From: a virus
DNA length: 64,000 nt
Direction: 5' to 3' (one strand)
IMG/VR virus record: IMGVR_UViG_3300030060_007988
In this document: piece after piece, positions 1 to 63,618 of the stretch
Position numbering within the stretch: position 1 is the stretch's first letter
Layout of the letters: every line of letters begins with the position of its first letter
Program-made: the position numbers and the translations under genes
Notes under the pieces: generated by a model
Seen by the model: the letters and a program-made list of their open reading frames with translations, nothing else
The model's database searches: none
What the model was told of the DNA's origin: nothing

Positions 1-441
1 TCGCATCTGGATAGGATAACCTGTGTAACATCATGCAGGGGTGTCTAGCAGGCCTATTTGCAACCGCCATCCTGTCTCAAGAGAGATAGTTGAATATAAT
101 ATCACTGAAAAAACTATGCGTTTCTAGGAGAAGGAGGACTTTTTTTCTGGCTAGAATGACACTGGATGAGTTATCACAAAGAGTGTTAGGGTGGTAATTA
201 CGGAAGAGAGATCCAAGAGCTAAAGGGCCTGAACATCCTGTAACAATGGCATTACAAGAGTGTATCGTGAAGTCTAGATGTGGCACGTCAAGATGCTAGA
301 TGATGCGGATAAGGGTATCAATCCCTACACAATAATCTATAGACTACACCGACTAGTCTCACGTCCTCTCTCACTAGCTAGCAAATCTCATACATCAAAT
401 CAATATAGCGCAAAAATAATTTGAAAAAAGTTGTGAAAAAA

Positions 442-478
442 TTTTTTTTTGTCAATTGTTATGGTTATTTTTATATAT
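442..478 (+). promoter_or_regulatory. class-1 (putative early) promoter T-tract-CAA-N8-GTTAT
   Basis: tttttttttgtcaa-ttgttatg-gttattttt; one of 8 copies with fixed 8-nt spacing, all intergenic and upstream of + genes. Confidence 0.6.
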
Positions 479-503
479 AATTAATTGATAAAAGATAAAC
501 ATT

Positions 504-641
504 ATGATAGAATTATTTAAGCAAGCATTTGAAGAAGCAAAGCAAAATCCATGGGAAGCATTAATGGCAACAGTAACATGTGTCACAATGTTCTTCATGT
601 TTTATATAACATATATTATCCTCTGGGCTATAGCTGGGTAA
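504..641 (+). CDS. small membrane protein (45 aa, MIELFKQAFEE...ILWAIAG)
   Basis: ORF below track cutoff, translated by hand; follows class-1 promoter; hydrophobic C-terminal half. Confidence 0.6.
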   Translation: MIELFKQAFEEAKQNPWEALMATVTCVTMFFMFYITYIILWAIAG

Positions 642-673
642 TCAATAATAACTAATAAATAAAGTAATAAGAT

Positions 674-841
674 ATGGAAAAATATACAGTACATTTAATA
701 GAACCACAACTTCACCTGGCAAAGGTAGTAATACTAGAAGCAACTCATTATAGTAACGCTAAGACAAAAGCATTAGATATGTATCCTGGATACGTGTTGT
801 TTGATCAATACCTTTGGACTAATCAAGAAGTTAGCTGTTAA
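674..841 (+). CDS. hypothetical protein (55 aa, MEKYTVHLIEP...)
   Basis: hand-translated ORF filling the gap between promoters; stop lies within repeat ctgttaataac. Confidence 0.6.
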   Translation: MEKYTVHLIEPQLHLAKVVILEATHYSNAKTKALDMYPGYVLFDQYLWTNQEVSC

Positions 842-859
842 TAACTTTGTTAATAACTT
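835..859. repeat. dispersed repeat ctgttaataactttgttaataactt (copy 1)
   Basis: identical to 4846-4870; two tandem GTTAATAAC quasi-palindromes. Confidence 0.8.
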
Positions 860-881
860 GCCAAAAATAATTGGTCTAGAA

Positions 882-915
882 TTTTTTTATCCCAATTGTA
901 TTGGTTATATTTATA
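882..915 (+). promoter_or_regulatory. class-1 promoter overlapping ATATTTATA element
   Basis: tttttttatcccaa-ttgtattg-gttatatttata. Confidence 0.6.
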
Positions 916-990
916 TATCAAATTTGAACGAGTGAGTTTAGGCCACCAATCAAATGTTAAGTAAAAATTAAAAAATAAAAATCGCAAAAT

Positions 991-2205
991 ATGACAAATA
1001 AAAAATATACTTATTTAAAAGGTTGTAGTTTCAAACGCAAGCCGGCGCTAGTAGATTCTACCGGAAACATTTATAGAGTTAATGACGACCAATATCAAAC
1101 TAGGTTATCTTATGCAGCTAGCAAAGAAACTATGGTTAAGATTGTATTGGACGGAGATAACAACGTTACAGGACTAACAGTAGCTAAATCCGTATCTGAT
1201 AGAGAATGCGCTAAATCAGCTATGGGTACTATGAGTAGCTATTGTATTAAAGAGGCTGTTAAGGAGACTGTAAAAGTCCCTGAAGAGCAGGCCGAGGTTA
1301 TGTCTTTTATTAAGGACAGTATAACATTAAGACCGGCAACCATGAAGATATCTGACCTTAAGTGGAAGTACTTAATGCGTTCAGCAGTTCGTGGCAAGAA
1401 TATTATGATGACAGGACCAGCAGGTTGTGGTAAGACTATGGCGGCTAAATCTGTTATGAATTCTATGGACCGAGAGGGATTCTATTTTAATCTAGGGGCA
1501 ACTCAAGACCCCCGAGCAACCCTTATCGGTAATACTCATTTTAATAAGGAGGATGGTACATACTTTACTGAGAGTACATTCGTTAAGGCTATTCAAACCG
1601 AAGATGCCGTTATTCTATTAGACGAATTAAGTAGAGCCCATCCAGACGCATGGAACATCCTTATGACCGTATTAGATGAAGGTCAGAGATACCTAAGGTT
1701 AGACGAGCACCCAGACAGTCCAACCGTAAAAGTAGCCCCGGGAGTATGTTTTATAGCTACTGCTAATATAGGTAATGAGTATACATCTACAAGAATGTTA
1801 GATAGGGCGTTAATGGATAGATTTATTATAGTAGAGATGGATATGCTAAACAAGGACGAAGAGGCAGATCTACTAAAAATGTTATATCCAAATGTAGATA
1901 GTGATGTCATAGATGCAATAGCAGATATAGCCTTTAGTACTAGAGTTGAAGCAAATGCAGAGACGCCAAGAATAAGTACAGCTATTAGTACAAGAGCGAC
2001 GGTAGAAATGGCTGGGTTATTATACGATGGATTTGATCTGTCTGAAGCTGCACAGGTTGTAGTATATCCACAGTACAGCATAGAAGGTGGATTGGATAGT
2101 GAAAGAACATACGTCAAACAACTGGTACAGAAGTTCATCAAATCTGATAACCAAGAGGAGGATCTCTTCAATGCGGACGAGATAGATGGAGCGGAAACTG
2201 AATAA
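991..2205 (+). CDS. MoxR/CbbQ-like AAA+ ATPase
   Basis: Walker A GPAGCGKT, Walker B ILLDELSRA, FIATAN, LDRALMDRF, STR sensor. Confidence 0.85.
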   Translation: MTNKKYTYLKGCSFKRKPALVDSTGNIYRVNDDQYQTRLSYAASKETMVKIVLDGDNNVTGLTVAKSVSDRECAKSAMGTMSSYCIKEAVKETVKVPEEQAEVMSFIKDSITLRPATMKISDLKWKYLMRSAVRGKNIMMTGPAGCGKTMAAKSVMNSMDREGFYFNLGATQDPRATLIGNTHFNKEDGTYFTESTFVKAIQTEDAVILLDELSRAHPDAWNILMTVLDEGQRYLRLDEHPDSPTVKVAPGVCFIATANIGNEYTSTRMLDRALMDRFIIVEMDMLNKDEEADLLKMLYPNVDSDVIDAIADIAFSTRVEANAETPRISTAISTRATVEMAGLLYDGFDLSEAAQVVVYPQYSIEGGLDSERTYVKQLVQKFIKSDNQEEDLFNADEIDGAETE

Positions 2206-2428
2206 ACTATTTTGCGATAGTGGCAACGAGTGGTGGTTGACAAAGGAGATTGAGTTCTCGCCACCACTGGCTGTCTAGGGCTGGATAAGGCTTAGGGTTA
2301 GTTGTAAGCTAGCAAGATATGTGTGATAGCAATGTGGGTTCGGTACATCTTTGTACAGGTGCCCAAAAAAATGACTATGGAAAGACACCGTTAGGTGAGT
2401 GTTTAACACTAATAATATATTAATAGAT

Positions 2429-2650
2429 ATGAAATGTAAATGCAATAATACAATACCACAAGGAAGACTGGATCTCGGATACAGGACATGCGTAGCATGT
2501 AGCACCGTTGAGGCATACGGCTGCGTGAGAATTAGCAATCACAAAACAGGCAATACCATACAGGTCACTAGCCAAGCAACCATGCGCAAGATGGAGAAGC
2601 TGGGTGCAAGAAGAGGCTATGGAGTAATGAGTGGAATGAAACACAATTAA
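2429..2650 (+). CDS. small Zn-binding protein (CKC...RLDLGYRTCVACS)
   Basis: Cys cluster; ATG at 2429 preferred over GTG at 2399. Confidence 0.65.
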   Translation: MKCKCNNTIPQGRLDLGYRTCVACSTVEAYGCVRISNHKTGNTIQVTSQATMRKMEKLGARRGYGVMSGMKHN

Positions 2651-2654
2651 AAAT

Positions 2655-2951
2655 ATGACTATGAAAAAAACTATGACAAGACAATCAGGAGCAGTAACCA
2701 GGCATATGCTTGATTATGTAAGAGACAATGGACCAGTAAGCTACACTGACCTCAATATGGAATACTACTTCTATCAGGGTGGTAGAGACTATGACCCAGT
2801 GAGAGACAGGGGAGGTAGCTATCCACACCATCACGGACAATTGCAAACCAGGAGATCTCGAAGAATCAAGGCCAGTCCACTAGTGCACTCTGAATGGATA
2901 GAAAAGACCAGGGACGGCAAATACCGATACAGATACTACGGAGAGATATGA
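2655..2951 (+). CDS. hypothetical protein
   Basis: ORF track; tight packing with neighbours. Confidence 0.6.
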   Translation: MTMKKTMTRQSGAVTRHMLDYVRDNGPVSYTDLNMEYYFYQGGRDYDPVRDRGGSYPHHHGQLQTRRSRRIKASPLVHSEWIEKTRDGKYRYRYYGEI

Positions 2952-3244
2952 GAAAGAACAGATACCTACACCGACTCGAGAGACTGAGGGACAATGTCTG
3001 CAAATGGATTGGCAAGACTAGCCATCCACCTAACATGGAGCGTAGCGATTTTGCAACTGATGCTGAATGGACATGTTGGCGTTCACTACTACTCGATATC
3101 AAACACTGTAGTCTCTATACTGGCTATCGGGTTGACCCTGAACGTCTGGCTCACTACAATTCTCTCTGGTTGGCTAGCAAAGGACAGGATGTTATTGTAG
3201 GCTGTGTTGCTGAACATCGTGTATACTATTATGAATGGCAATAA
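2948..3244 (+). CDS. hypothetical protein
   Basis: ATGA overlap with upstream stop suggests start at 2948. Confidence 0.55.
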   Translation: MRKNRYLHRLERLRDNVCKWIGKTSHPPNMERSDFATDAEWTCWRSLLLDIKHCSLYTGYRVDPERLAHYNSLWLASKGQDVIVGCVAEHRVYYYEWQ

Positions 3245-3308
3245 CAATGTGTGTCCCTACCCTTTAAACACGGCGGCGGGCGGCACTAAAAACTAAAAAG
3301 GAAAGACA

Positions 3309-3605
3309 ATGACAAAATATATATTCAATGGATACAATCTATCTGTACTGGCAATACTGTTTATTATATATGCAAACTATCAAATGACTTATAGTGAAGA
3401 ATCCAAAATACTGAATCAGGACGAAAACTATAAACCCACTAACAACTATGATCACGACCAGGACTGGGAGGATAGTGATGAGTGGCATACAATCTGGTAC
3501 AATCAAATAGACACTAATAGTAATGGTGAGGATGATGCCTTAGAGTATCACGGCAAGGAGGGCACTAGTGAATATGGCGAGTATGAACAAACAATTAACA
3601 ATTAA
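3309..3605 (+). CDS. membrane-anchored acidic protein
   Basis: N-terminal hydrophobic helix followed by D/E/N-rich region. Confidence 0.6.
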   Translation: MTKYIFNGYNLSVLAILFIIYANYQMTYSEESKILNQDENYKPTNNYDHDQDWEDSDEWHTIWYNQIDTNSNGEDDALEYHGKEGTSEYGEYEQTINN

Positions 3606-3664
3606 TTAACAATTATTTAATATTAGAATTATGGCTGATTGCTATAAGGTCTATATTTATTGAT

Positions 3665-3745
3665 ATGGAACACAAACGACAAATAGATATCTCTCAGATT
3701 TTATATGTATTGATTATGATATTAATGTTTATACTATCTATATAA
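3665..3745 (+). CDS. putative leaderless small membrane peptide (26 aa, MEHKRQIDISQILYVLIMILMFILSI)
   Basis: ATG 4 nt after ATATTTAT motif; single hydrophobic helix. Confidence 0.4.
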   Translation: MEHKRQIDISQILYVLIMILMFILSI

Positions 3746-3830
3746 TATGCGGGGCTCGCGATTGCAATACTTCTTCCTGTAGCATGTTTATATATATAAT
3801 ATCAAAGCCCAACAAAACAAATATGAAAAA

Positions 3831-4286
3831 ATGAAAAAAAATTTAGTTACAATACAAAAAAAACTTCAAGAGATAGAATCACTAGCTATGGATCTTGGAA
3901 TCAATGATATCTTTAGAAACAAAAAGTTCATAGAAGTATTGGCTGCCGACATGTTAGGCCATAGACCAAATGTAGAACCTCAAGGACCAGATGCATATGA
4001 AATGATTAGTGGTGTTGAATATCCAACTGAGTATAAGAGTGCAGGTGTAGGTGGCACGTTTCAGTTTCATTGGCTATCAAACAATAAGATGGACAAAATA
4101 AAGATATGTAAGAATGTTTATTTTATTGTCAGGTCTGGTGTATCAATACTTGAGATCTATGGAGTACCAACCAATAAGATAGTGTCAATGATAGAGGAAA
4201 AGGCAAGTGGTAGCAAATCACCAAAAGGCTGTAAAGCTTTTAGTTTGAAAAATCTTATTGACCTTGGGGCGAAAAAACTCAAATAA
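3831..4286 (+). CDS. PvuII-family PD-(D/E)xK endonuclease
   Basis: LQEIESLAMDLGINDIF, GPDA...EYKS and FIVRSGVSILEIY resemble PvuII segments (IQEYQDLALKHGINDIF, GNDA...ELKS, FAIYRGIAIEAIY) recalled from memory. Confidence 0.65.
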   Translation: MKKNLVTIQKKLQEIESLAMDLGINDIFRNKKFIEVLAADMLGHRPNVEPQGPDAYEMISGVEYPTEYKSAGVGGTFQFHWLSNNKMDKIKICKNVYFIVRSGVSILEIYGVPTNKIVSMIEEKASGSKSPKGCKAFSLKNLIDLGAKKLK

Positions 4287-4345
4287 ACATGAAAGTAGCC
4301 ATGACAAATTGTCACCAGTTTCGTGCCACATTGTCATCTAAAAAA

Positions 4346-4379
4346 TTTTTTTTTCCCAAATATTCTGATTATATTTATA
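4346..4379 (+). promoter_or_regulatory. class-1 promoter
   Basis: tttttttttcccaa-atattctg-attatatttata. Confidence 0.6.
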
Positions 4380-4417
4380 TATAACAAATTAATAATAACA
4401 ACTAAAAATCGCAAAAT

Positions 4418-4852
4418 ATGAGCAAAGTTAAAAAGTCTCCAGAAATCAAATACGGAATTGAAATCACAAAACCATTTAGTAAAGAAATGTATGACCACAA
4501 CAATAAGGTTGCACAAGAAATGAAATCTAACTTATTACACCATTGGACTCAACTAATCAAAAAATTAGAGGAGGATGATAGATATCTAATGGAAAGAGAA
4601 TGGAATGAAGATGATATAAAATCTGAATGCCCTGAATTGGTTAAACTTCAGAGAGGTGTTTGTTATTCTGGATTTGGTGGTGGATATAGCATCCAAGATG
4701 TATGTGATGAATTCTATAAAGAATTAGATATGATGCAAAACTGGCAATTACATGAAGAATATTCGTACCTTTCATTTGAAGGAGTAGTTCGTAGAACAAA
4801 ACATATGATGATTGGATTTGGTTGGTCAAAACATGACTATTCAAACTGTTAA
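4418..4852 (+). CDS. hypothetical protein
   Basis: ORF track; leader aaaaatcgcaaaatATG identical to that of the 991 gene. Confidence 0.75.
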   Translation: MSKVKKSPEIKYGIEITKPFSKEMYDHNNKVAQEMKSNLLHHWTQLIKKLEEDDRYLMEREWNEDDIKSECPELVKLQRGVCYSGFGGGYSIQDVCDEFYKELDMMQNWQLHEEYSYLSFEGVVRRTKHMMIGFGWSKHDYSNC

Positions 4853-4870
4853 TAACTTTGTTAATAACTT
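4846..4870. repeat. dispersed repeat ctgttaataactttgttaataactt (copy 2)
   Basis: identical to 835-859. Confidence 0.8.
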
Positions 4871-4947
4871 TCAAAAAAAAGTTTAAAAACATAGCTCAAA
4901 ACCCAATAAATCTAATTATATTTATATATAATAAAAAATAATAAATT

Positions 4948-5289
4948 ATGTCAATAAATAAAACTATCGCAACTAAGTTCAGAACAGACTTTCAGAAAAC
5001 TGTTCAAAAATTAGAAAAAAAATATGGAATGAGAATATCATTAGGAAACATCCGTTTCGATTCTCAAGAATTAAAAAGTACCATGACGGCAACCGCTGTT
5101 GGAAAAGGTGCTAGTAAAAGACTTTCAATATCTGACCTATTCATTGGTGACAATGTTTTAATCAATCACAGAAGAGCTAAAGGCCAGGAGTTTGAAGTTG
5201 TTAAGAAAGCAATTAAAAACGTTCGTCTTAAAAATACAAAGACTGGCGAACTATTTGTTGTATCACCATCTTTATTAATAAAAATATAA
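4948..5289 (+). CDS. hypothetical protein with possible C-terminal SH3/KOW-like domain
   Basis: LFIGDNVLI...FEVVK...VRLK pattern; preceded by class-1-like CAA-N8-ATTATATT (4904-4922). Confidence 0.6.
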   Translation: MSINKTIATKFRTDFQKTVQKLEKKYGMRISLGNIRFDSQELKSTMTATAVGKGASKRLSISDLFIGDNVLINHRRAKGQEFEVVKKAIKNVRLKNTKTGELFVVSPSLLIKI

Positions 5290-5293
5290 TAAT

Positions 5294-5722
5294 ATGAAAA
5301 AGACAAAGAAAGAATTAATATTAGAATATGTAGAAACAACATTTGGTGCAACCGGTGCAAGATTTACTGATATCCAAAAATTTATATATGAGCACAACCA
5401 TCCTGGGAAAACTTATGGAAGAAACAATAGAGGTTATTACTGTTGTGCATTATGGGACGGTGGAATGTTTGCTGGTAGAAAAGGTCACTTAGTGAAAGGC
5501 GATAATAGATTAGAGAAAATGAGTAACGGCCGATGGAAAGTTGTTAGAACAATTGAATCAAAGAAGCCTACTGATGATGAATACAATAAAGCAATTGAGT
5601 ATGTTGAGAAACTAGGAACACTAGATTCTATATATGATGTTGCAATGAAATATAATTTAAGTGCAGAACAAATGAAAGAACTATATGTTGTAAGAGAAAG
5701 GGCTCTTCACTATTTTCATTAA
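5294..5722 (+). CDS. hypothetical protein
   Basis: ORF track. Confidence 0.7.
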   Translation: MKKTKKELILEYVETTFGATGARFTDIQKFIYEHNHPGKTYGRNNRGYYCCALWDGGMFAGRKGHLVKGDNRLEKMSNGRWKVVRTIESKKPTDDEYNKAIEYVEKLGTLDSIYDVAMKYNLSAEQMKELYVVRERALHYFH

Positions 5723-5732
5723 AAATAAAAAT

Positions 5733-5870
5733 ATGATAGATTTAAAAACTTTAAGTATAGAACAATTAAACTTGGTACTTCATAACATGAGGATATATCG
5801 TGTAGATATTGAAAAGCAGAATAAAGTAATTGAGGAAATAAGTAAACGTAAAAAAGAAACAGAATTATGA
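5733..5870 (+). CDS. hypothetical protein (45 aa)
   Basis: hand-translated MIDLKTLSIEQ...; ATGA overlap with next gene. Confidence 0.55.
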   Translation: MIDLKTLSIEQLNLVLHNMRIYRVDIEKQNKVIEEISKRKKETEL

Positions 5871-6262
5871 AAAAGGTAAAACATAAACGTAAAGTTGGTG
5901 AAGTAGTTGACTTTATATTTTTTGACGGATCTAAAAAAACAGGAAAAATTGTAGAGCTAACATATCATGGCGACAATATAGATTCAGTAAGAACTCAGTA
6001 CGACTTACCAACATACAGAATACATGTCCCTGATAAAAAATACTCAAGGGGATATATGGTATACTCAAGTATGACTGATATGAGAATAGAGGATGCAAAA
6101 ACAAAACAGGTAGTTGAGGAATTTTGGGAAGATGAATCTGGAGCTGAGATTACGCATATACCTGATAAACTAGGTTGGTTGAAAAAATATCACAACAATG
6201 TAAATGAATCAGAACTTGATAACGCAATAAAAAAACAAAAAGATTTTTTGGAAAAACATTAG
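5867..6262 (+). CDS. hypothetical protein
   Basis: ORF track. Confidence 0.7.
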   Translation: MKKVKHKRKVGEVVDFIFFDGSKKTGKIVELTYHGDNIDSVRTQYDLPTYRIHVPDKKYSRGYMVYSSMTDMRIEDAKTKQVVEEFWEDESGAEITHIPDKLGWLKKYHNNVNESELDNAIKKQKDFLEKH

Positions 6263-6268
6263 GAAAAA

Positions 6269-6298
6269 TTTTTTTATCCCAATAGAAATGGTTATATT
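6269..6298 (+). promoter_or_regulatory. class-1 promoter
   Basis: tttttttatcccaa-tagaaatg-gttatatt. Confidence 0.6.
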
Positions 6299-6322
6299 AT
6301 ATAAAATCAAAAATAAAATGTT

Positions 6323-7372
6323 ATGGCAATAAGATACGGATACGCATGTATAAATATGACTCTTAGGCAACAACGCATTACAACAAACAGAGGTATGATT
6401 AGGAGAACCTTCGATAGTAAAGGTTTAGAATATGTTTCTGAAATTGTACTACTGAACCTAAGAGATCAATTAGAAATAATTAAATGGAATGAAGAACACA
6501 ATATTAAACTATATCGTATGTCTGGTAGTTTGTTCCCTTGGATGAGTGAATATGAATTTAAAGATCTTCCTAAGTACGACGAGATTAAAAAAATATTGGC
6601 TGAAACAGGAAAATTTGCAATGGACCACGGACAACGTCTTACATTCCACCCAGGTCAGTTTTGTGTACTATGTTCACCAACTGAACAAACTGTTAAGAAT
6701 GCAATTGTTGAATTAGATAGGCATTCTCAAATTATGGATATGCTTGGACTACCTGCATCGCCCGAGGCTAAGATTAATATCCATGTAGGTGGTGCCTATG
6801 GCGATAAAAAGTCAGCACTTAAGCGTTGGTGTAAAAACTTTAAAAGGCTAGAACCTAATACACAGAAAAGACTAGTTATTGAAAACGATGACAAAGCAAG
6901 TATGTACTCAGTTAAAGATTTATACGAAGGCATATATAAAAAGATAGGTGTTCCTATTACATTTGATTACTACCATCATAAATTTTGTACAGGTGGTTTG
7001 TCAGAAGAGGAAGCATTACATCTTGCAGCTAAAACCTGGCCAGAAGGTATTCGTCAATGTACACACTATTCAGAGTCTAGGCGTAATGAACAGAAAGCGT
7101 CAATGGAAATGTTATGTGAAAATAACAACATAGATATAGCTCTCCTAGAAAATGGCAATGACGATGACTGGCCAACACTATCAAGAGTTTACAAAGAATG
7201 GTGTAAAACAAAAGAACAAGCTCATTCAGACTATATTACACAAGAACCTAATTGTTATGGATTAGATATCGATTGTGTAGTAGAGGCGAAGGCTAAAGAA
7301 TTATCAATTATTAAATATATTAATCAAGACCGGCTTGCAGCCCAACTGCTAACAGAAAATGAAAAAGTATAA
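6323..7372 (+). CDS. uvsE: UV DNA damage endonuclease UvsE/UvdE
   Basis: GYACIN, YRMS, RLTFHPGQF, NIHVGG, LVIENDD, FDYYHH, HYSE, AHSDY, VEAKAKE motifs. Confidence 0.92.
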   Translation: MAIRYGYACINMTLRQQRITTNRGMIRRTFDSKGLEYVSEIVLLNLRDQLEIIKWNEEHNIKLYRMSGSLFPWMSEYEFKDLPKYDEIKKILAETGKFAMDHGQRLTFHPGQFCVLCSPTEQTVKNAIVELDRHSQIMDMLGLPASPEAKINIHVGGAYGDKKSALKRWCKNFKRLEPNTQKRLVIENDDKASMYSVKDLYEGIYKKIGVPITFDYYHHKFCTGGLSEEEALHLAAKTWPEGIRQCTHYSESRRNEQKASMEMLCENNNIDIALLENGNDDDWPTLSRVYKEWCKTKEQAHSDYITQEPNCYGLDIDCVVEAKAKELSIIKYINQDRLAAQLLTENEKV

Positions 7373-7658
7373 TAGAAACAGAATTAGAAAAACAGATTTA
7401 GGACCAGGACAAAGACCTGCTAAACATAACTCCAAAAAACCATTCAATCCAGAAAAGTATGGTCAACTCTGGGCAGGCATTGACTTTAAGTGTATACACA
7501 ATGCAAATCCTATTGGACAGGCAAAGGGGCCAGTTATAGGGGAGTTAAGTTTAGGAGGTAAAAATTTTAAACTAACATGGACTGAATGTAATAAACTAAT
7601 AGAAACCTTAGAAGATGCTAAGTACAAATATAACATCGGTAAAAGGTTAGGAATGTAA
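7359..7658 (+). CDS. hypothetical protein
   Basis: ORF track. Confidence 0.65.
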   Translation: MKKYNRNRIRKTDLGPGQRPAKHNSKKPFNPEKYGQLWAGIDFKCIHNANPIGQAKGPVIGELSLGGKNFKLTWTECNKLIETLEDAKYKYNIGKRLGM

Positions 7659-7670
7659 CAGGAGAATATA

Positions 7671-8163: not shown

Positions 8164-8174
8164 TATTTATATAT

Positions 8175-8490: not shown

Positions 8491-8506
8491 ATTTTTTTGA
8501 GAACAT

Positions 8507-11898: not shown

Positions 11899-11928
11899 TT
11901 TTTTTATTTCATTTATTTTTGTTATATT
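11899..11928 (+). promoter_or_regulatory. class-1 promoter
   Basis: tttttttatttcat-ttattttt-gttatatt. Confidence 0.55.
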
Positions 11929-11955
11929 GTATCTAACAAAAGGATTAAGAGTATT

Positions 11956-12156
11956 ATGACGGATTTTATATTATTTATAGCAAGCTTAATTGCACTACTA
12001 GCAATATTTGCAACTGCATTTATTATATTTTCATTACCATTATATTTAGGATGGAATTTATTAGCATTTATGTTTGGTTTCAAACCTATATCGTTTATGT
12101 GGGCATTTATATGTACAAATATTATCATAATGGTTAGACACATGTATAAGTTTTAA
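11956..12156 (+). CDS. small membrane protein
   Basis: hydrophobic 66 aa. Confidence 0.6.
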   Translation: MTDFILFIASLIALLAIFATAFIIFSLPLYLGWNLLAFMFGFKPISFMWAFICTNIIIMVRHMYKF

Positions 12157-12157
12157 A

Positions 12158-12370
12158 ATGGATAAAATAATTTACATACGAGGAACATATTCAAAAGAAG
12201 CTCAACGCATTGAAATGGATGTTAGAGAAAATTTAAATATTCATGACTATAAAACAATATGTGAAAGACTAGCTGCCTCACTAGGATATAGTCAAAAGAG
12301 TATAGATGAAGCATTTGGTGTGGCTAAAGAATCCACACTCAAAAACAACAAACAAATTTTAAACGATTAA
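12158..12370 (+). CDS. hypothetical protein
   Basis: ORF track. Confidence 0.65.
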   Translation: MDKIIYIRGTYSKEAQRIEMDVRENLNIHDYKTICERLAASLGYSQKSIDEAFGVAKESTLKNNKQILND

Positions 12371-12380
12371 AGGATTGGTT

Positions 12381-13007
12381 ATGTATAGAAATTTATATGG
12401 AGAAGGAAAAGTAAAACAAACTCAACCACCAGGTGATAAAGACCTTGAGGATAAGAAAGCACTATTTAAAGTGTACAAAGAAATTGAGTATGGTGTAGAC
12501 ATTAAAGATTCAGTTCTATATCTTATGGGAGAGATTGGTGAATATTCTTCACTTGATGTAATATCACGTGTAAGAACAATATTGAAGAATAGGGAAGACA
12601 ATGATGAATCACCAATAAATATAATTGTAAATTCAGGTGGAGGTTGCGCATATGAGATGTTTGGAATTATTGATTATATAAAATCCTTAAAGGTTCCTGT
12701 GAATGTAATAGTAAGAGGACGTGCAATGAGTGCTGCCGCAATGGTTCTTGTTTCGGCAACTGGTAAAAGATATGCAAGTAAGCATTCAACTATTATGATT
12801 CATGAAGGAAATAGTATAAACGCCGGTAAAGCATCGGACCTTAAGGCTGCAGGTAAACATATACAAAATATTGAGAATATGTGTAATAATTTATTAGCTG
12901 CATCAACAAAGAAAGATGCAAAGTGGTGGGAAGAAAATACTAGAAATGATTTATACTTAACAGCCGAGGAAGCCTTGGAATTAGGAGTCATTGACCAGAT
13001 TATATGA
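12381..13007 (+). CDS. clpP: ClpP-family serine protease
   Basis: VNSGGG, AMSAAA (Ser), IMIHE (His), NDLYLTAEEALELGVID (Asp). Confidence 0.88.
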   Translation: MYRNLYGEGKVKQTQPPGDKDLEDKKALFKVYKEIEYGVDIKDSVLYLMGEIGEYSSLDVISRVRTILKNREDNDESPINIIVNSGGGCAYEMFGIIDYIKSLKVPVNVIVRGRAMSAAAMVLVSATGKRYASKHSTIMIHEGNSINAGKASDLKAAGKHIQNIENMCNNLLAASTKKDAKWWEENTRNDLYLTAEEALELGVIDQII

Positions 13008-13651
13008 AACTAGTAATACATACAGATTGGTTAAGAGTATACGATGATGTATTAAGCAAGTCAGATTGTAATAAAATTATACAATTTGGTCAAAAGCTTT
13101 CTTTTACAGATTCTACGGTAGTAGGACAAACAACAAAAAAATCTACATATCGTACAAGTAGTCATATAGTATTACCTGAATCATTGCATCAAAATTTAAT
13201 ATTGTCTAAAATAGTTGAAAAGGCATCAGGATATGATGCAGCAAATCAGGAACCAATTTCGTTATTGAAATATAAACCAGGACAACAATATAGACCACAT
13301 CCAGATTATTTTGATGAACATAGTGAAACAGGCCGTGAGCAAATGAAAGGTCTTAGAAATAGAGTTATGACTGCACTTCTTTTTCTAAATGATAATTTTA
13401 CAGGTGGCCAAACGCAATTCTATAATGATGAAAGAGGGTATAATCCTGAAATAACTGTACATCCTAAAAGGGGAAGACTTATACTATGGATGAATATGAA
13501 TATTAAATATAATTTTGCACAAGTAACTAAAAGAAAAAATATTATATCCACACATGCAGGATTACCAGTAATTGAAGGTACAAAGCATTGTGCAGTTATC
13601 TGGATACGTGAATCACTAATTAATAAGGAGCCAACAAATGAAACTTACTGA
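13004..13651 (+). CDS. 2OG-Fe(II) oxygenase, prolyl-4-hydroxylase-like
   Basis: HPD motif, RVMTALLFLND..GGQT.F, HAGLPVIEGTK..AVIWIR. Confidence 0.85.
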   Translation: MKLVIHTDWLRVYDDVLSKSDCNKIIQFGQKLSFTDSTVVGQTTKKSTYRTSSHIVLPESLHQNLILSKIVEKASGYDAANQEPISLLKYKPGQQYRPHPDYFDEHSETGREQMKGLRNRVMTALLFLNDNFTGGQTQFYNDERGYNPEITVHPKRGRLILWMNMNIKYNFAQVTKRKNIISTHAGLPVIEGTKHCAVIWIRESLINKEPTNETY

Positions 13652-14387
13652 ACAACAAATAGCAGACAATTGGATAAAACTAACACAGTGTATTGAAACT
13701 GAATTTACAGGTGAAAGAAAAACTAAGTTATTGGAAATGTATGAATTTTTTAAAGACCGAATGATGTTTGCACCGGCTTCAGGATTTGAACACTTACACA
13801 ATTGTTTTGTTGGCGGATATGTAGATCATGTTTTGCGTGTTATTGAATGTGCTCAGGAAAATTATGAATTCTGGAAAAGAATGGGTTCAGACTGCTCAGG
13901 GTACACTAAAGAAGAACTTACTTTTGTTGCACTTAATCATGATTTAGGTAAAATTGGAGATTTGGAAAATGATTACTATGAACCGTGCACCAGTGATTGG
14001 CATAGAAAAAACCAGGGAAAATTATATGAATCAAATAAATCAATTGGTCATCATATGCCAGTTCCACATCGGTCTATATTTTTATTGAATCATTTTGGAA
14101 TTAAAGTTAGTGAAGTTGAAATGATTGGTATACTAACACATGACGGTTTATATGATGAAGGTAATAAAACATACTTTATGAACTGGGCTGATGAAAAAAG
14201 TTTTAAAACAAATCTTCCATTAATTATGCACCATGCAGACCACATGGCATCTAGGATTGAATATGAAAAGTGGAAAACAAATAAAAAGCCTGTAACCAAA
14301 AAAACGACATATAAGTCAAAGCCTAAAGTTTCATCTGCAAATACAAAGGCTACTGATATGTTTAAAGATTTATTCGGAGACTCATGA
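13638..14387 (+). CDS. HD-domain hydrolase (YhaM-like)
   Basis: GGYVDHVLRV, ALNHDLGKIG, HDG, HHADH. Confidence 0.8.
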   Translation: MKLTEQQIADNWIKLTQCIETEFTGERKTKLLEMYEFFKDRMMFAPASGFEHLHNCFVGGYVDHVLRVIECAQENYEFWKRMGSDCSGYTKEELTFVALNHDLGKIGDLENDYYEPCTSDWHRKNQGKLYESNKSIGHHMPVPHRSIFLLNHFGIKVSEVEMIGILTHDGLYDEGNKTYFMNWADEKSFKTNLPLIMHHADHMASRIEYEKWKTNKKPVTKKTTYKSKPKVSSANTKATDMFKDLFGDS

Positions 14388-14683
14388 TTTTAACAATAAT
14401 AATATTATCTATCATAACAATAAGTTTGACATTTGCATTGGTTAACATTCTTAGAAAGTATGAAAAGTTAGAAGATGAAAATGATTATGTAAATAATTAT
14501 GTAAACGATTTACTTATTAAATTAAAGAAAACAATTTCAACAATGAAAGATATAGATGTTAGAGGATCATTTGAATCCGATGACGAAACAGGTGCAATAT
14601 TTGGAGAAATAAAAAACATGATAATTGATATTGAAAAAAATTATCTCATAGAGGAAGACATAGATGCCAAAGAAAAAAAATAG
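14384..14683 (+). CDS. membrane-anchored protein
   Basis: N-terminal TM plus coiled coil. Confidence 0.65.
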   Translation: MILTIIILSIITISLTFALVNILRKYEKLEDENDYVNNYVNDLLIKLKKTISTMKDIDVRGSFESDDETGAIFGEIKNMIIDIEKNYLIEEDIDAKEKK

Positions 14684-15350
14684 AATGTATTTCACTCTTG
14701 ATACTCAAGATGCAATAGTAAAATATAATAAGTCAAAAAACGACACTGAGCGAAATAGGTTATACCAAGTTCATATTCATAAAGCATTTGATAAGCTAGC
14801 TGAAAACATAATTAATACATTTAAGTTCCAGTATTTTGATATTCCTTATCAGGATGTTAAGCATGAAGTGGTTGCATTTCTAATTGAAAAGATGCCTAAA
14901 TATACTGAAGGTAAAGGAAAGGCATTTTCATATTTCAGTATTGTTGCAAAAAACTATTTAATACTTCACAATAACAACAATTACAAAAAACTAAAACAAC
15001 GTGCTCCTATAACAGTCCTTGATACTTCTCGTGATGTTATTGGAGAACAATATTCTAAAACTTTACGTGAAGAAAAGCGTGACTTTATGGAATTATTTAT
15101 AGAGTGGTGTACTAATAATCATGATTCGCTAGTTTCAAAACCACGTGATAAAAAAATTCTTTTTGCACTTTTAGAAATATTTAGAACACGTGATAACATT
15201 GAAAACTTTAATAAGAAGGCCCTTTACATTATGATTAGAGAAATGACTAATGTAAAAACTGGATATATTACAAGAATAGTTAATATAGTAAAACAAAAAT
15301 ATGTTGATCTATATAAAGTATATACAAACCGAACAACAATCTCAGAATAA
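14664..15350 (+). CDS. late-transcription sigma factor (T4 gp55-like)
   Basis: KLAENIINTFKF.Y, KAFSYFSIVAKNYL sigma region-2-like; sits at the junction with structural genes. Confidence 0.65.
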   Translation: MPKKKNRMYFTLDTQDAIVKYNKSKNDTERNRLYQVHIHKAFDKLAENIINTFKFQYFDIPYQDVKHEVVAFLIEKMPKYTEGKGKAFSYFSIVAKNYLILHNNNNYKKLKQRAPITVLDTSRDVIGEQYSKTLREEKRDFMELFIEWCTNNHDSLVSKPRDKKILFALLEIFRTRDNIENFNKKALYIMIREMTNVKTGYITRIVNIVKQKYVDLYKVYTNRTTISE

Positions 15351-33539: not shown

Positions 33540-33570
33540 TTTATTTTGTCAATTATTTTTGTTATATTTA
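33539..33570 (+). promoter_or_regulatory. class-1 promoter
   Basis: tttattttgtcaa-ttattttt-gttatattta upstream of primase. Confidence 0.55.
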
Positions 33571-33574
33571 ATAC

Positions 33575-34489
33575 ATGAACAATTATGCAATAATTAAGTT
33601 ATTGAATTCATTACTTGGAAAAGGATATGAATTAAAAAACAATGAAGTATCATATCATTGTCCTTTTTGTAATCACCATAAGAAAAAATTACAAGTAAAC
33701 ATATCTAGTCAATTTTGGCAATGCTGGGTTTGTGGTGTTAAAGGAAGAAAGATTATATCACTATTTAAAAAACTTTCTGCGCCTTATGAGTATTTTAAAA
33801 AACTTTCAAATCTATTAGGCGATAGGCTTGACTTTAATATCAACAAAAAATATTCAGATGAATTGAATTTACCTATTGAATACATTGCATTTAAAGACGC
33901 CAACACTAAAAGTCCTGAATATAAAAATGCAATATATTATCTTATTAAAAGAGGAATAACGCCACAGGATATTTTTAAGTATAGTATTGGGTATTGTGAA
34001 AGTGGTCCATATCGTGGAATGATAATTATTCCAAGTTATGACTGCAATGGTAAACTAAACTTTTTTACTGGCAGAAGTTATTATGAAACAAACTATAAAC
34101 ATAAAAACCCTTCAGTATCAAAGGATATTATTGGATTTGATTTACATATAAACTGGGATGAACCTATTACTTTAGTTGAAGGTGCATTTGATGCAATTGC
34201 AGTTAGAAGAAATGCCATTCCATTATTTGGAAAATTAATGTCTGATAAACTAAAAATAAAAATAGTACAAAAACAGGTTTCAAAAGTAAACATAGCACTA
34301 GACAGGGATGCATTAAAAGGATCACTCAAAATATCAGAGTATTTAATGTCAAATGGTATAGATGTTCATTTTATAGATTTACCTGAAAAAGACCCTAGTG
34401 AATTAGGATTTAAAAATATACAACGATTAATTAGTGATTCCAATCCACTAAACTTATTAAAAATAATGGAGTTTAAATTATTATGTTAG
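33575..34489 (+). CDS. DNA primase
   Basis: Zn finger CPFCNH...CWVC; TOPRIM LVEGAFDA, LDRD, KDPSE. Confidence 0.88.
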   Translation: MNNYAIIKLLNSLLGKGYELKNNEVSYHCPFCNHHKKKLQVNISSQFWQCWVCGVKGRKIISLFKKLSAPYEYFKKLSNLLGDRLDFNINKKYSDELNLPIEYIAFKDANTKSPEYKNAIYYLIKRGITPQDIFKYSIGYCESGPYRGMIIIPSYDCNGKLNFFTGRSYYETNYKHKNPSVSKDIIGFDLHINWDEPITLVEGAFDAIAVRRNAIPLFGKLMSDKLKIKIVQKQVSKVNIALDRDALKGSLKISEYLMSNGIDVHFIDLPEKDPSELGFKNIQRLISDSNPLNLLKIMEFKLLC

Positions 34490-34692
34490 AAATTGAAATT
34501 TGGCCATATGTGTCCGGCAGTCATAAAGTATACACAAATAACGAAAAAATGAAAAATGAATTATGTACAGTTTTAAAAATAGAAAATGCATCATGTACAT
34601 ATATGAAAAAAGGAAAACCTTTTGCATGGGATTTAATATTTAACGATGTTAGAATGTCTACTGTAAAACGAATCATAAAAAAGTATAACTAG
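34483..34692 (+). CDS. hypothetical protein
   Basis: ORF track; coupled to primase. Confidence 0.6.
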   Translation: MLEIEIWPYVSGSHKVYTNNEKMKNELCTVLKIENASCTYMKKGKPFAWDLIFNDVRMSTVKRIIKKYN

Positions 34693-34702
34693 GAGTTTTA
34701 TA

Positions 34703-37700
34703 TTGAATACAATTATTGATGTAGGATTTAATTCTACTGAGAAAATATTGCATGTTGCAGACATCCATATAAGAAACTACAAACGTCATAAAGAATATAA
34801 ACAAGTTTTTAGAAAACTATATAAAGAAGCCAGAAAAACTCCAAAGGAAACTGTCATATATGTTGGTGGAGACATAGTACATACAAAAACTGATATAAGT
34901 CCAGAACTTATACAAATGGTTAGTGATTTTTTTAACACTCTTGCAAAAATTAGACCTACAATTGTTATAACTGGTAATCATGATGCTAACCTAAATAATC
35001 CTAGCAGACTAGATTCTCTTTCTCCAATTGTTGATAACTTAAACAATCCAAACTTACATTACTTAAAGGATTCAGGAATATATACAATAGCTGGAATAAA
35101 TTATATTGTAATGTCAGTTTTTGATGATCCTAAAAACTACTTAACAAAAAAAGATCTACCAAAGGGGTATAACATAGCACTATATCATGGACCTGTAAAT
35201 AAATCACAAACTGATATTGGATATGTTGTAGATAATCCTCATATGACAACAAAAATGTTTGATGGATATGATTTAGTACTTCTTGGGGATATTCATAAAA
35301 AGCAATTTTTAAATGATGAAAAAACAATATGTTATGTTGGATCCTTAATACAACAAAACTTTGGAGAAACATTTGAAAATCATGGCTATATGTTATGGGA
35401 CGTTAAAACAAAAAAGTCAGAATTTTTTGAAATAGAAAATGACTTTGGATATTACACTATTGATGTAAAAGATGGTAAACCATTAAACCTAAATAAGATT
35501 CCAAAAAAACCTAGGTTAAGACTTAGGACTGAAAATACAACGGCGGCTGATATAAAAAATATTATAGTTGACATTAAAAAGAAATATAAAATTCAGGATG
35601 TAACAATAATTAGACAGGACAACATATTGAGCCAAAAGGGTGATGAAATAACTGGGATAGAAATAACAAGGGATGTAAGAAGTGCTGAATATCAAAATCA
35701 ACTTTTAGAGGATTACTTAGTTAGAAGATTTACACTTGATGAAGACATGATATCCAGGATAAAGGTTATTAATAGTGAACTTAATAAAATATTAAATGAT
35801 ATTGACATAGGTAGACATATACATTGGAAACCTAAGAAATTTGAATTCTCAAATATGTTTAGTTACGGTGAAGGTAATACAATGGATTTTGAAAACTTAT
35901 CAGGATCTATAGGTCTATTTGCACCAAATCATTCTGGTAAGTCTGCACTATTTGATGCATTATCGTTTTGTGTATTTGATAGGTGTAGTAGATCACGTCA
36001 TGGTATGGATGTAATGAATAACAAAAAGAAAACTTTTCACTGTAAATTAAATTTTGAAATTGACGGTATAGATTATTTTATTGAAAGACATGGGAAAAGA
36101 TTTAAAAGTGGAGGCGTACGAGTTGATACTGATTTTTGGATGATTGATGAAAGTGGTGAAAAGGTTAGTCTCAATGGTGAACAACGAAAGGATACTAATA
36201 AAAACATTCAGGGATATTTAGGTGCATATGAAGACTTTACATTAACTGCACTATCGGTTCAAAATAACAATACTGGATTTATTGATAAAACTCAATCTGA
36301 GAAAAAAGATTTACTTGCACAGTTTTTAGATATAACTGTATTTGAAGAATTATACCAATTAGCAACTGATGAAATTAGTGATGTGGCAGCTGTACTAAAA
36401 CAATTCCGTGATACAGATTTTGAATCACAGCTAATAGAATATGAAAATTCTCTTAAGAGCTTTAAAGAAAAGTATAGTGAAGTTGAATCTAAAAATAATA
36501 AAATAAAAACAACTTTAAAAAAATTAAATGACAAACAATTGGAACATAGTAGTAAATTAATAACAACATTTAATTTAAAATATTCCATAAGTGAATTAAT
36601 ATCAAAAAGAAAAAATATTAAAGACACAATTGAGTTTCTTCAATCAAAATTAAATAAGTATGAAAAGTATACTGTTGAAAATAAAGTTAAACTTCAAGAT
36701 ATAAACAAAAAGCTAGCTGATTTAGATGAAAATGAAGTAACATCCAATAAAATGTTATATGATTCAACTATGGTTGAAAAAACAAAAATTACAAATGAGT
36801 TAGATAAATTAAAAATCATTGTTAAAAATAAATTGGAAAAGCTTTCAGCGATTGGTCAGTTTGATCCTAATTGTGATTTTTGTAAAAATACACCATTTGT
36901 ACAAAGTTCTACAAAAATAGAAAATTCATTAAATGGGGATAAAGTTCTTGCAAAGAAAAACATTGAGAAAATAAATCAATTGGATTCTACATTGGAAAAA
37001 CTAAAACCTTCACTAATTGATTATGATAATCTGACTTCATATAAATCAGAGCTTCAAACAATAAAACAGTATGAAAGTGAAATAAGAATTAAAACATCTA
37101 AAAATGAAACTCTTATTGCAAACAATAAACATGATTTAACTAAAGTAAATGATTTAATAGATAAATACTATAATAATGAATCGGCAATAAAGAGTAATCA
37201 AAGAGTTCAGAAAAAAATAGATGATATAAAAGAATCTATAAATGAACTAAATCTTGAGCTTAGAAAAAGTACCGTTAATTCACAGGATATGTACAGTGAT
37301 ATTAAAGTTTATGAAAATAAAATACTTACAATAAAAACCTCTATTAAAGAAGCTGAAGAGCTGGAAAAAAGATATAAGGCATACGAATATTACCTTAATG
37401 CTATTGAAAGGGACGGTATTCCATATGAATTAATTTCAGCTGTTCTTCCATATATAGAAGATGAAGTAAATAATATTCTTTCACAAATAGTTGATTTTAA
37501 AATATTGTTTAACGTTGATGGCAAAAAAATAAATACATACATATCATATACAAATGACGACTTTTGGTCATTGGAACTTACAAGTGGTATGGAAAAGTTT
37601 ATATCTTCATTGGCTATAAGAGTTGCACTAGTAAACATTTCAAATCTGCCAAGACCTAATTTCTTAGCAATAGATGAAGGATTTGGAAACCTTGATTCTC

Positions 37701-37852
37701 AAAATATAAATTCAATGTCAAACCTATTTGACTATCTTAAAACTCAATTTGATTTTATGATGGTTATAAGTCATATTGATGTTATGAAAGATATCATGGA
37801 TGACTCTATAGAAATTGACACATCTAATGAATTTAGCCGCATTTGTTATTAG
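34703..37852 (+). CDS. fused SbcD/Mre11 nuclease - SbcC/Rad50 ATPase (gp47-gp46-like)
   Basis: ADIH, GGDIVH, GNHD, LGDIH phosphoesterase motifs; Walker A APNHSGKS, Zn hook CDFC, signature TSGME, Walker B IDEGFG, ISH; TTG start with AGGAG. Confidence 0.9.
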   Translation: MNTIIDVGFNSTEKILHVADIHIRNYKRHKEYKQVFRKLYKEARKTPKETVIYVGGDIVHTKTDISPELIQMVSDFFNTLAKIRPTIVITGNHDANLNNPSRLDSLSPIVDNLNNPNLHYLKDSGIYTIAGINYIVMSVFDDPKNYLTKKDLPKGYNIALYHGPVNKSQTDIGYVVDNPHMTTKMFDGYDLVLLGDIHKKQFLNDEKTICYVGSLIQQNFGETFENHGYMLWDVKTKKSEFFEIENDFGYYTIDVKDGKPLNLNKIPKKPRLRLRTENTTAADIKNIIVDIKKKYKIQDVTIIRQDNILSQKGDEITGIEITRDVRSAEYQNQLLEDYLVRRFTLDEDMISRIKVINSELNKILNDIDIGRHIHWKPKKFEFSNMFSYGEGNTMDFENLSGSIGLFAPNHSGKSALFDALSFCVFDRCSRSRHGMDVMNNKKKTFHCKLNFEIDGIDYFIERHGKRFKSGGVRVDTDFWMIDESGEKVSLNGEQRKDTNKNIQGYLGAYEDFTLTALSVQNNNTGFIDKTQSEKKDLLAQFLDITVFEELYQLATDEISDVAAVLKQFRDTDFESQLIEYENSLKSFKEKYSEVESKNNKIKTTLKKLNDKQLEHSSKLITTFNLKYSISELISKRKNIKDTIEFLQSKLNKYEKYTVENKVKLQDINKKLADLDENEVTSNKMLYDSTMVEKTKITNELDKLKIIVKNKLEKLSAIGQFDPNCDFCKNTPFVQSSTKIENSLNGDKVLAKKNIEKINQLDSTLEKLKPSLIDYDNLTSYKSELQTIKQYESEIRIKTSKNETLIANNKHDLTKVNDLIDKYYNNESAIKSNQRVQKKIDDIKESINELNLELRKSTVNSQDMYSDIKVYENKILTIKTSIKEAEELEKRYKAYEYYLNAIERDGIPYELISAVLPYIEDEVNNILSQIVDFKILFNVDGKKINTYISYTNDDFWSLELTSGMEKFISSLAIRVALVNISNLPRPNFLAIDEGFGNLDSQNINSMSNLFDYLKTQFDFMMVISHIDVMKDIMDDSIEIDTSNEFSRICY

Positions 37853-59997: not shown

Positions 59998-60222
59998 ATG
60001 CCAGGACTAGACGAAAATAGCATACCACCAGCACAAGGTGGAATAACAAAAAGACCTGAAACAATATCGGGAAAACTTGAGTCTCTCGTTGACGGTGCAA
60101 TACAGGGTCAAATAGCAAAACCACAAGTTAAACATTCAGACCCATTACCTGAGTTAGAATCACCAGCACCTGGATCCTCAACTCTTGATATTGATGGAAC
60201 GCCAGAAAAGTACGCAGGATAA
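59998..60222 (+). CDS. hypothetical protein
   Basis: ORF track; AGGAG SD. Confidence 0.6.
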   Translation: MPGLDENSIPPAQGGITKRPETISGKLESLVDGAIQGQIAKPQVKHSDPLPELESPAPGSSTLDIDGTPEKYAG

Positions 60223-60226
60223 TGAT

Positions 60227-61768: not shown

Positions 61769-61798
61769 TTTTTTTATGTCAAATATTTTTGTTATATT
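61769..61798 (+). promoter_or_regulatory. class-1 promoter of the bS21 gene
   Basis: tttttttatgtcaa-atattttt-gttatatt. Confidence 0.6.
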
Positions 61799-61827
61799 AT
61801 AGTAATTGTTAATTAAATACGTATTAT

Positions 61828-62169
61828 ATGAGTAAGAAAAATTATAGAGGGAAATTTACCCCTCGAGACCGTTCAGGAAAACCAATCAGAAACTATAGGG
61901 CAAGAACAGATTTTGTTATCCCAGGAGTACCACTAGGTGTTAAAGTTTTAGACAACAATGTTGAAAGAAGCTTAAAAATATGGAAGAGACAACTTAAGGA
62001 CTCTGGCAAAATTATGGAATTAAAACAAAGACGCTACTTTGAAAAGCCGTCATCTAAAAGAAGAAAGGAGAAGGATTTTGCAATACGGCGTGACTGGATT
62101 GAAAACCTAAAGAGACGTCAAAATGAAAAAGAGTGTTGGACTATAATAACACCAAAGGGCGCAATGTAG
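61828..62169 (+). CDS. rpsU: phage-encoded ribosomal protein bS21 with N- and C-terminal extensions
   Basis: VKVLDNNVERSLKIWKRQLKDSGKIMELKQRRYFEKPSSKRRKEK matches the bS21 pattern. Confidence 0.85.
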   Translation: MSKKNYRGKFTPRDRSGKPIRNYRARTDFVIPGVPLGVKVLDNNVERSLKIWKRQLKDSGKIMELKQRRYFEKPSSKRRKEKDFAIRRDWIENLKRRQNEKECWTIITPKGAM

Positions 62170-62195
62170 TATATCTACAATTATTTACACAAATT

Positions 62196-62216
62196 AGAGG
62201 CTTCGGCCTCTTTTTT
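62196..62216 (+). terminator. intrinsic terminator after bS21
   Basis: agaggc-TTCG-gcctct hairpin followed by T tract. Confidence 0.85.
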
Positions 62217-62379
62217 GCTTTTTAAAAACATACTTTTGCAATATATGTATATATTTATTTTTGAATTAAAAAATCTACAATGCACTACCTTCTATGTAGT
62301 GGACGATTAAATTAAAACAAATCACAATTAAGATTCAAGAATAATCTTATTATCCTAAAAAATTTAAGGAGTAATAGTA

Positions 62380-63591: not shown

Positions 63592-63618
63592 TTAAAAAAA
63601 AATTAGAGGAGACAAATA

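Follow-up and report, generated by a model that had tools for sequence, protein, structure and literature searches.

The 64,000-nucleotide stretch analysed here (the window) is the left-hand portion of the genome of a marine T4-like phage, whose host most likely belongs to the Bacteroidia and is of the Flavobacteria type. Among its head genes is one for ribosomal protein bS21, and the product lacks the aromatic residue 54 that is the Bacteroidia-type, anti-Shine-Dalgarno-occluding trait. Shine-Dalgarno (SD) sites are nearly absent from its earliest genes and frequent elsewhere, and bS21 and SD use occur together at the level of whole clades. What we observe directly is the bS21 gene with its residues and regulatory signals, the way SDs are distributed, and the coupling between clades. 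A possible explanation, which we put forward tentatively, is that phage bS21 retunes SD-blind ribosomes toward SD-led mRNAs.

The window is 33% G+C and nearly all of its genes lie on the + strand (Table 1). PHROG annotation left most of them unnamed, so gene classes were assigned by position and promoter motif. The bS21 gene lies within the terminase-portal-protease-capsid region, where it forms a self-contained unit of early-type promoter, SD-less leader, ORF and terminator inside the head-gene cluster. The early-type (class-1) promoter pattern, CAW-N8-RTTATWTT, has 11 matches in the window against 2.6 expected, and eight of these are intergenic and on the + strand (453, 893, 4357, 4904, 6280, 11910, 33550 and 61780). 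The late-type motif ATATTTAT has 23 copies, 18 of them on the + strand and most just upstream of genes. The initial annotation had proposed that the bS21 mRNA is SD-independent; the absence of an SD from its leader, behind an early-type promoter, bears this out, and related contigs show the same, with no SD at 17 of their 18 distinct bS21 genes.

Table 1. Features of the window discussed in the text.
Feature	Position	Strand	Basis or description
Early block	278..7658	+	16 mostly small genes, adenine-rich SD-less leaders, 1 of 16 with SD
Permuted (two-piece) tmRNA	8176-8424	+	Rfam tmRNA_permuted, 78 bits, cut-off 47
Class-1 operon	11910..15350	+	ClpP-like protease, 2OG oxygenase, HD hydrolase; distal genes SD-led
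Class-1 unit inside tail module	33550..37852	+	Primase (no SD), then small ORF and SbcCD fusion (SD)
Large terminase	55131-56711		
Portal	56727-58529		
S77 prohead protease (T4-type)	about 60194-60859		
Class-1 (early-type) promoter motif CAA-N8-GTTATATT, ahead of bS21	61780..61798	+	Pattern match
bS21 leader	61799..61827	+	29 nt, A/T-rich, no SD, A at -13, -12 and -11; pairing energy +0.5 kcal/mol
Phage bS21 gene	61828..62169	+	Pfam, PDB alignments, family alignments A1 and A2, AlphaFold model
Intrinsic terminator, ends bS21 unit	62196..62211	+	6-bp stem, 4 G-C pairs, then TTTTTT
Late-type motif ATATTTAT, ahead of scaffold and capsid genes	62251..62258	+	Motif copy
AGGAG SD of scaffold gene, 8 nt ahead of ATG	62367..62371	+	Leader scoring
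Scaffold	62380-63591	+	Acidic, repeat-rich
GAGGAG SD of major capsid gene (63619 to window end)	63606..63611	+	Leader scoring
Gp23-type capsid gene, start of	63619 onward		

The protein in the scaffold position consists mostly of acidic repeats of the KDEMEKKDEM type and has no Pfam match. Besides the prohead protease, the window encodes a ClpP-like serine protease (12381-13007, +) in a class-1 operon. SbcD- and SbcC-like domains are fused in one ORF of about 1000 codons (34703-37852, +), whose longest frame begins at a TTG with AGGAG ahead. An identical 14-nt leader, aaaaatcgcaaaat, stands at 977-990 and 4404-4417, ahead of the ATGs of two unlike genes; the one at 991 codes for a CobS/MoxR-like ATPase, and the one at 4418 has no assigned function. 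The G+C-rich intergenic islands 1-277, 2206-2398 and 3245-3308 are possibly structured RNAs, and Rfam at gathering thresholds gave no match in them.

The product of the bS21 gene has 113 residues. Residues 38-88 match Pfam PF01165 (Ribosomal_S21) over model positions 2-53 of 55, with 45.4 bits against a curated cut-off of 27 (E 6.6e-12), which upholds the original identification of the gene as bS21. The protein matches 37 solved bS21 chains at E up to 1, and its best solved relative is the P. gingivalis bS21 of entry 9i5v (PMC12123416). A full-library search returned 1558 relatives at E up to 0.001, and near-identical genes were found on marine (TARA) metagenome contigs. Searching a phage collection with the window bS21 matched only four Melnitz records, at 35% identity. 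The layout is that of a conserved basic N-terminal extension (about residues 1-37) closed by a PG..GVKV motif, the core at 38-88, and a C-terminal extension containing a conserved ECWT motif. The AlphaFold model has a mean pLDDT of 87 and helices at 45-59, 61-69 and 74-101; confidence is good for the N-terminal extension and the three core helices and lower (about 63-71) for the C-terminal tail. Foldseek returned mitochondrial bS21m as the sole match to this model (E 0.08, probability 0.97), small helical proteins being a class that aligns poorly.

In F. johnsoniae, Tyr54 of bS21 stacks on A1534 and Ile55 touches the 3′ tail of 16S rRNA (Jha et al. 2020, PMC7797042). Tyr54 has been described as a residue found in Bacteroidia only. 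In chain 7jil_z, from F. johnsoniae, KPS is followed by 11 further residues and then Y54-I55. Counting from the same KPS, the initial annotation had placed an Arg in the phage protein where Flavobacterium has Tyr, and the alignments agree: R87 falls at the Tyr54 position in both the ungapped phmmer alignment and family alignment A1, and R88 falls at that of Ile55, so that both residues contacting the 3′ tail are replaced. F84 and W90 lie one helical turn from Arg87. We aligned 154 bS21-like sequences, the best 150 matches of a representative search and a few relatives. Position 54 is most often Arg (116 sequences), and Tyr, Phe or His occurs in 16. The Arg of the phage protein may reflect ancestry rather than adaptation.

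To map SD use, the + strand was tiled with ORFs and the 20 nt ahead of each start were scored, the starts being our own ORF calls (first ATG) and not those of a trained gene finder. An AGGAG-type 5-mer precedes 23% of gene starts and a 4-mer core 43%, compared with 2.6% and 9.6% of internal ATGs. In 27 of 33 SD calls the motif ends 6-8 nt ahead of the start codon, and our duplex calculation puts SD strength in the window at about -7 to -10 kcal/mol. The 16 AGGAG sites listed in the initial annotation, ahead of 7671, 8953, 9855, 13638, 20307, 28316, 28928, 30156, 34703, 42253, 54114, 54487, 59998, 61597, 62380 and 63619, are all present, each 6-8 nt ahead of its start codon. The leaders it described as SD-less, at 504, 674, 991, 4418, 4948, 5294, 6323, 33575 and 61828, are indeed so.

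The early block stands apart from the rest of the window. Among genes starting up to position 7400, 1 of 16 has an SD, compared with 32 of 58 elsewhere (Fisher p=4e-4), and the median pairing energy is -0.35 kcal/mol, compared with -5.95 elsewhere (p=2e-6). Fourteen of the 16 early-block genes have an A at -12 (binomial p=9e-5 against 39% genomic A). The first genes of units differ by promoter type: an SD precedes one of the eight genes that come first behind a class-1 promoter (a weak AGGA at 11956) and six of the seven that come first behind a late motif with room for a leader (p=0.01). When every gene was assigned to its nearest upstream promoter, pairing energy still separated the classes (p=0.001) but the motif count did not (9/27 class-1 genes versus 24/46 late genes with an SD, p=0.15). 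The split between SD-less early and SD-led late genes that was originally suggested therefore stands only in part. The earliest genes do lack SDs, but SDs are not specific to late genes, being found on 14 of 24 middle genes as well as on 18 of 33 genes of the virion module. Distal genes of class-1 operons are SD-led, so SD use does not follow an early-versus-late dichotomy; the operon at 11910..15350 places SDs outside late transcription units.

Several late genes begin 2-5 nt behind ATATTTAT, too close for an SD, and in most relatives the terminase gene likewise lacks an SD and starts within 2-5 nt of the late motif. The mRNAs of such genes are probably leaderless or nearly so, which would add a third mode of initiation to the adenine-rich and SD-led ones. 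In the window, the ATGs at 15365, 45901, 51111 and 53546 come 2-5 nt after ATATTTAT(A), and the same spacing is seen at the terminase genes of contigs L014, L031, L044, L049 and L054.

By terminase, the closest cultured phages are "Microcystis phage" Mel-JY01 (60% identity) and Flavobacterium phage immuto (55%), and a comparison of capsids adds Rhodothermus phage RM378 (36%). Two scans yielded at least about 598 confirmed related contigs. No bS21 was found anywhere in the immuto genome, and 4% of its 211 genes have an SD, which is below its own internal-ATG background. Of the immuto clade, 29 metagenomic contigs cover the whole interval from terminase to capsid; none has bS21 (0/29), and their SD use is 0-19%. 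In the window's clade of 16 contigs, SD use is 38-82% and bS21 is present in the terminase-capsid interval of 15. An SD precedes the orthologous capsid gene in every one of 12 bS21-clade contigs and in none of 13 from the immuto clade, where the capsid leaders are adenine-rich instead. The bS21 gene lies on the strand of the structural genes in the window, as it does in each of the 15 related contigs that have it. A 79.6-kb relative (71% TerL identity) likewise has an SD-poor block of small ORFs. In one TARA relative, L008, the capsid was called as two ORFs of 157 and 338 aa (2316-3940) with about 135 nt between them; an intervening sequence, a frameshift and an assembly error are all conceivable causes.

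This coupling has its limits. Because only two sister clades are contrasted, it amounts to about one evolutionary event, and the contrast could equally mark a host shift. Within the bS21 clade, four relatives (L072, L082, L085 and L086) have a shorter bS21 with Tyr or Phe at position 54; its third helix reads AKYYQWL, compared with AAYIQTL in F. johnsoniae. SDs lead 37-61% of their genes, as many as in the Arg-type relatives, and their capsid genes too. We therefore rejected the idea that, inside this clade, SD use goes hand in hand with the loss of Tyr54; that loss is not required for SD use and is not the whole of any switch. In L078, SD use is 82% and AGGAG precedes nearly every head gene, and its 11.8 kb contig has no bS21 in the usual interval, where a 467-aa ORF (7119-8522) takes its place. 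Outside these clades, Melnitz, a bS21 phage of the SD-using host OM43, has SDs on 36-68% of genes in every 20-kb stretch, its early-type small genes included. An uneven distribution is thus no general property of bS21 phages. Cyanophage P-SSM4, which lacks bS21, has SDs on 27% of genes overall, in a patchy distribution of 0-50% per 20 kb.

Sequence comparisons point to a host that is probably a member of the Bacteroidota. Flavobacterium and Rhodothermus phages are among the nearest cultured relatives by capsid and terminase, which favours a Bacteroidia host. Adenines at -3, -6, -12 and -13 are published determinants of translation in F. johnsoniae (PMC13000457). The early leaders of the window fit these, 87% of them having A at -12 and 56% at -13; the corresponding values are 71% and 67% in immuto and 32-47% in Melnitz and P-SSM4, and the overall profile resembles that of immuto and differs from that of the SD-less genes of Melnitz, P-SSM4 or Mel-JY01. 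The Tyr/Phe54-type bS21s of the sister contigs have P. gingivalis and F. johnsoniae bS21 as their best solved matches. Against a Bacteroidia host are the record of Mel-JY01 as a Microcystis phage and the poor fit of the class-1 promoter to the Bacteroidetes TTG/TAnnTTTG consensus. The TAnnTTTG element was dropped as a host test: the intergenic gaps of Flavobacterium phage immuto contain none, so it is not diagnostic.

Other possible host markers were the tmRNA and matches in bacterial genomes, the latter uninformative. The tmRNA lies directly behind a late-type ATATTTAT motif, and its tag, according to ARAGORN, ends in ...EEPALMAA. No tmRNA was found in immuto or Mel-JY01. Permuted tmRNAs are native to Alphaproteobacteria, some Gammaproteobacteria and Cyanobacteria, which speaks against a Bacteroidia host, though they are common in marine phages generally (PMC9004378). 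We rejected the tmRNA as a host marker because two-piece forms are widespread in marine phages whatever their host (PMC9004378). A scan of bacterial-genome contigs with bS21 gave no match, and the ClpP-like protein matched bacterial genomes only at 23-44% identity, in unrelated phyla, with no close bacterial homologue.

The switch that we propose would begin in Bacteroidia ribosomes, in which the 16S anti-SD is held in a bS21/bS18/bS6 pocket and SD sites are ignored. The earliest phage genes and phage bS21 itself would be translated in the manner of the host, from unstructured leaders with adenines at -12/-13, and bS21 would be transcribed from its early-type promoter as a separate unit among the head genes. 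We infer that the phage protein, with its Arg-Arg pair and conserved extensions, could then bind the 30S subunit in place of host bS21 and leave the anti-SD more accessible. Such ribosomes would initiate better on the mRNAs of SD-led middle and late genes, among them those for capsid, scaffold, portal and baseplate, and less well on the SD-less mRNAs of the host and of the early phage genes. As the bS21 gene is itself SD-less, blind ribosomes would make the protein early and its synthesis would be self-limiting.

The scheme agrees with published biochemistry. In F. johnsoniae, bS21 with Y54A or a C-terminal truncation leads to 3- to 5-fold more protein from a strong-SD reporter (McNutt et al. 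2023, PMC9976891), and ribosomes with truncated bS21 initiate less on SD-less mRNAs (PMC9976891). The model of the initial annotation, in which phage bS21 frees the anti-SD, fits the published mutants, but loss of Tyr54 cannot be the whole switch. The SD of rpsU used in the published assays is below -13 kcal/mol, and the SDs of the window are far weaker. We hold the proposal only tentatively because the Tyr/Phe54 relatives are SD-led, because the coupling represents one clade event and because the assayed SD is so much stronger. The more far-reaching reading is that phage bS21 variants in general act as a switch by which the virus changes the start-site rule: they would re-expose the anti-SD in SD-blind Bacteroidia ribosomes, turning on a whole class of SD-led phage genes and turning down SD-less mRNAs of the host and the early phage genes. 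We consider that reading somewhat unlikely.

The SD use of the Tyr/Phe54 relatives and of L078 would be accommodated if the host were a Bacteroidia and the SDs functional, with the anti-SD freed by some phage function other than bS21. Candidates are the removal or modification of host bS21, bS18 or bS6, or bS21-free subunits, and phage bS21 might then sustain initiation on SD-less mRNAs or top up a limiting protein. The ClpP-like protease in a class-1 operon would suit this account; a phage protease acting on host bS21 has been speculated on by McNutt et al. (PMC9976891), and Chen et al. concluded that the bS21s of their own phages keep blocking the anti-SD (PMC9723584). However, bS21 and SDs occur together in 15 of the 16 site-spanning contigs of one clade and are both absent from all 29 of the other, no alternative factor was identified, and the conserved extensions of phage bS21 argue for a special function over simple supply. 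We consider this account unlikely. A different account, distinctly unlikely in our estimate, is that the host is not SD-blind at all but a cyanobacterium or another AT-rich marine bacterium, in which SDs mark highly expressed genes, SD-less early leaders reflect S1-dependent initiation on A/U-rich RNA, and bS21 merely supplements the ribosome in a generic way, the role suggested for it in pelagimyophages. The window has CobS-like, Hsp20, 2OG oxygenase and PhoH genes, which are typical of marine cyano- and pelagimyophages. Mel-JY01, recorded as a Microcystis phage, has bS21 in a syntenic place, and residue 54 of that protein is Lys; among the tmRNA clan models cyano_tmRNA fits best, at 57 bits and below the cut-off; SD use is patchy in P-SSM4 too; and Arg54 is the usual non-Bacteroidia state. 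Yet identity to cyanophages in capsid and terminase reaches only about 30%, compared with 55-63% for the Flavobacterium phage and 36% for the Rhodothermus phage. The early leaders have the A(-12/-13) pattern of a Flavobacterium phage and not that of Melnitz or P-SSM4, the sister bS21s have the Bacteroidia-specific Tyr54, the early-type small genes of Melnitz do have SDs, and two-piece tmRNAs are host-independent in marine phages (PMC9004378).

Both of these accounts, and the bS21 switch itself, take AGGAG to be a ribosome-binding site. T4 RegB cuts GGAG in mRNA, and the AGGAG motifs of the window stand in A/T-rich surroundings near late motifs, so they might instead be signals for transcription or RNA processing, such as targets of a RegB-like endonuclease. 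The regular spacing to start codons, the presence of AGGAG inside operons far from promoter motifs, its retention at orthologous capsid genes while the flanks drift, and its 4-9 times higher frequency at starts than at internal ATGs make this highly improbable.

The bS21 switch, if it operates, differs from each of the known systems that it resembles. The freshwater myophages assigned to Bacteroidetes by Chen et al. 2022 (ISME Commun 2:31, PMC9723584) also carry bS21 in a T4-like head module, and those authors proposed that it is substituted into host ribosomes and favours phage mRNAs during virion-protein synthesis. In their phages, however, bS21 is on the reverse strand, opposite the structural genes, and in the window it is on the same strand behind an early-type promoter. 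All 61 of their proteins have an aromatic residue at position 54, for which reason the anti-SD was taken to remain blocked, whereas the window protein has Arg-Arg at 54-55. The window bS21 is further distinguished by its long conserved extensions and its marine rather than freshwater origin. SD motifs were not analysed in that study (PMC9723584). The autoregulation of rpsU in F. johnsoniae (PMC7797042, PMC9976891) uses the identical ribosomal site and logic, in that altering or removing the C-terminal region of bS21 or Tyr54 frees the anti-SD and favours SD-led mRNA. There, a single host gene with a very strong SD (below -13 kcal/mol) responds to the absence of bS21, whereas in the phage a variant bS21 would serve dozens of genes with an ordinary AGGAG. 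Host rpsU has the strongest SD in most Flavobacteriales genomes, and the SD-less phage gene is the inverse.

Phages HTVC008M (PMC6375957) and Melnitz (PMC9004378) are, like the window, marine, T4-like and equipped with bS21, and Melnitz also has a two-piece tmRNA. The bS21 of Pelagibacter phage HTVC008M enters E. coli ribosomes, as PMC9976891 reports in citing Mizuno et al. 2019. But the hosts of HTVC008M and Melnitz use SDs, the SD use of Melnitz is uniform over its genome and that of the window is uneven, bS21 of Melnitz is found among small early genes beside a tRNA and not in the head module, and the structural genes are only distantly related to those of the window. In Francisella tularensis, swapping bS21 variants in the 30S subunit alters the translation of a subset of genes, a precedent for ribosomes specialised through bS21; this bacterium uses SDs, however, its paralogues are cellular, and neither a virus nor sequestration of the anti-SD is involved (PMC9578407, PMC12262407).

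In the literature searched, we found no published link of phage bS21 to SD-led (late) genes. The 2026 NAR work on the F. johnsoniae anti-SD does not mention phages, and in McNutt et al. 2023 phage bS21 appears only as speculation (PMC9976891). Of ribosomes with a masked anti-SD, that of the Bacteroidia is the one best understood, and its mask is under the control of bS21, as published mutants show. A phage lineage has apparently gained a divergent bS21 together with SDs on its virion genes, and its bS21-free sisters have neither. A role in retuning ribosomes is unproven but testable with the existing F. johnsoniae reporter and in vitro systems. If the proposal is false, one must still explain why a phage with an SD-blind host has SD sites at all. 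If it is true, this would be a clear example of a virus that builds specialised ribosomes and times its gene expression through them, and the commonest virus-encoded ribosomal protein would have a defined job in temporal control at the level of the ribosome.
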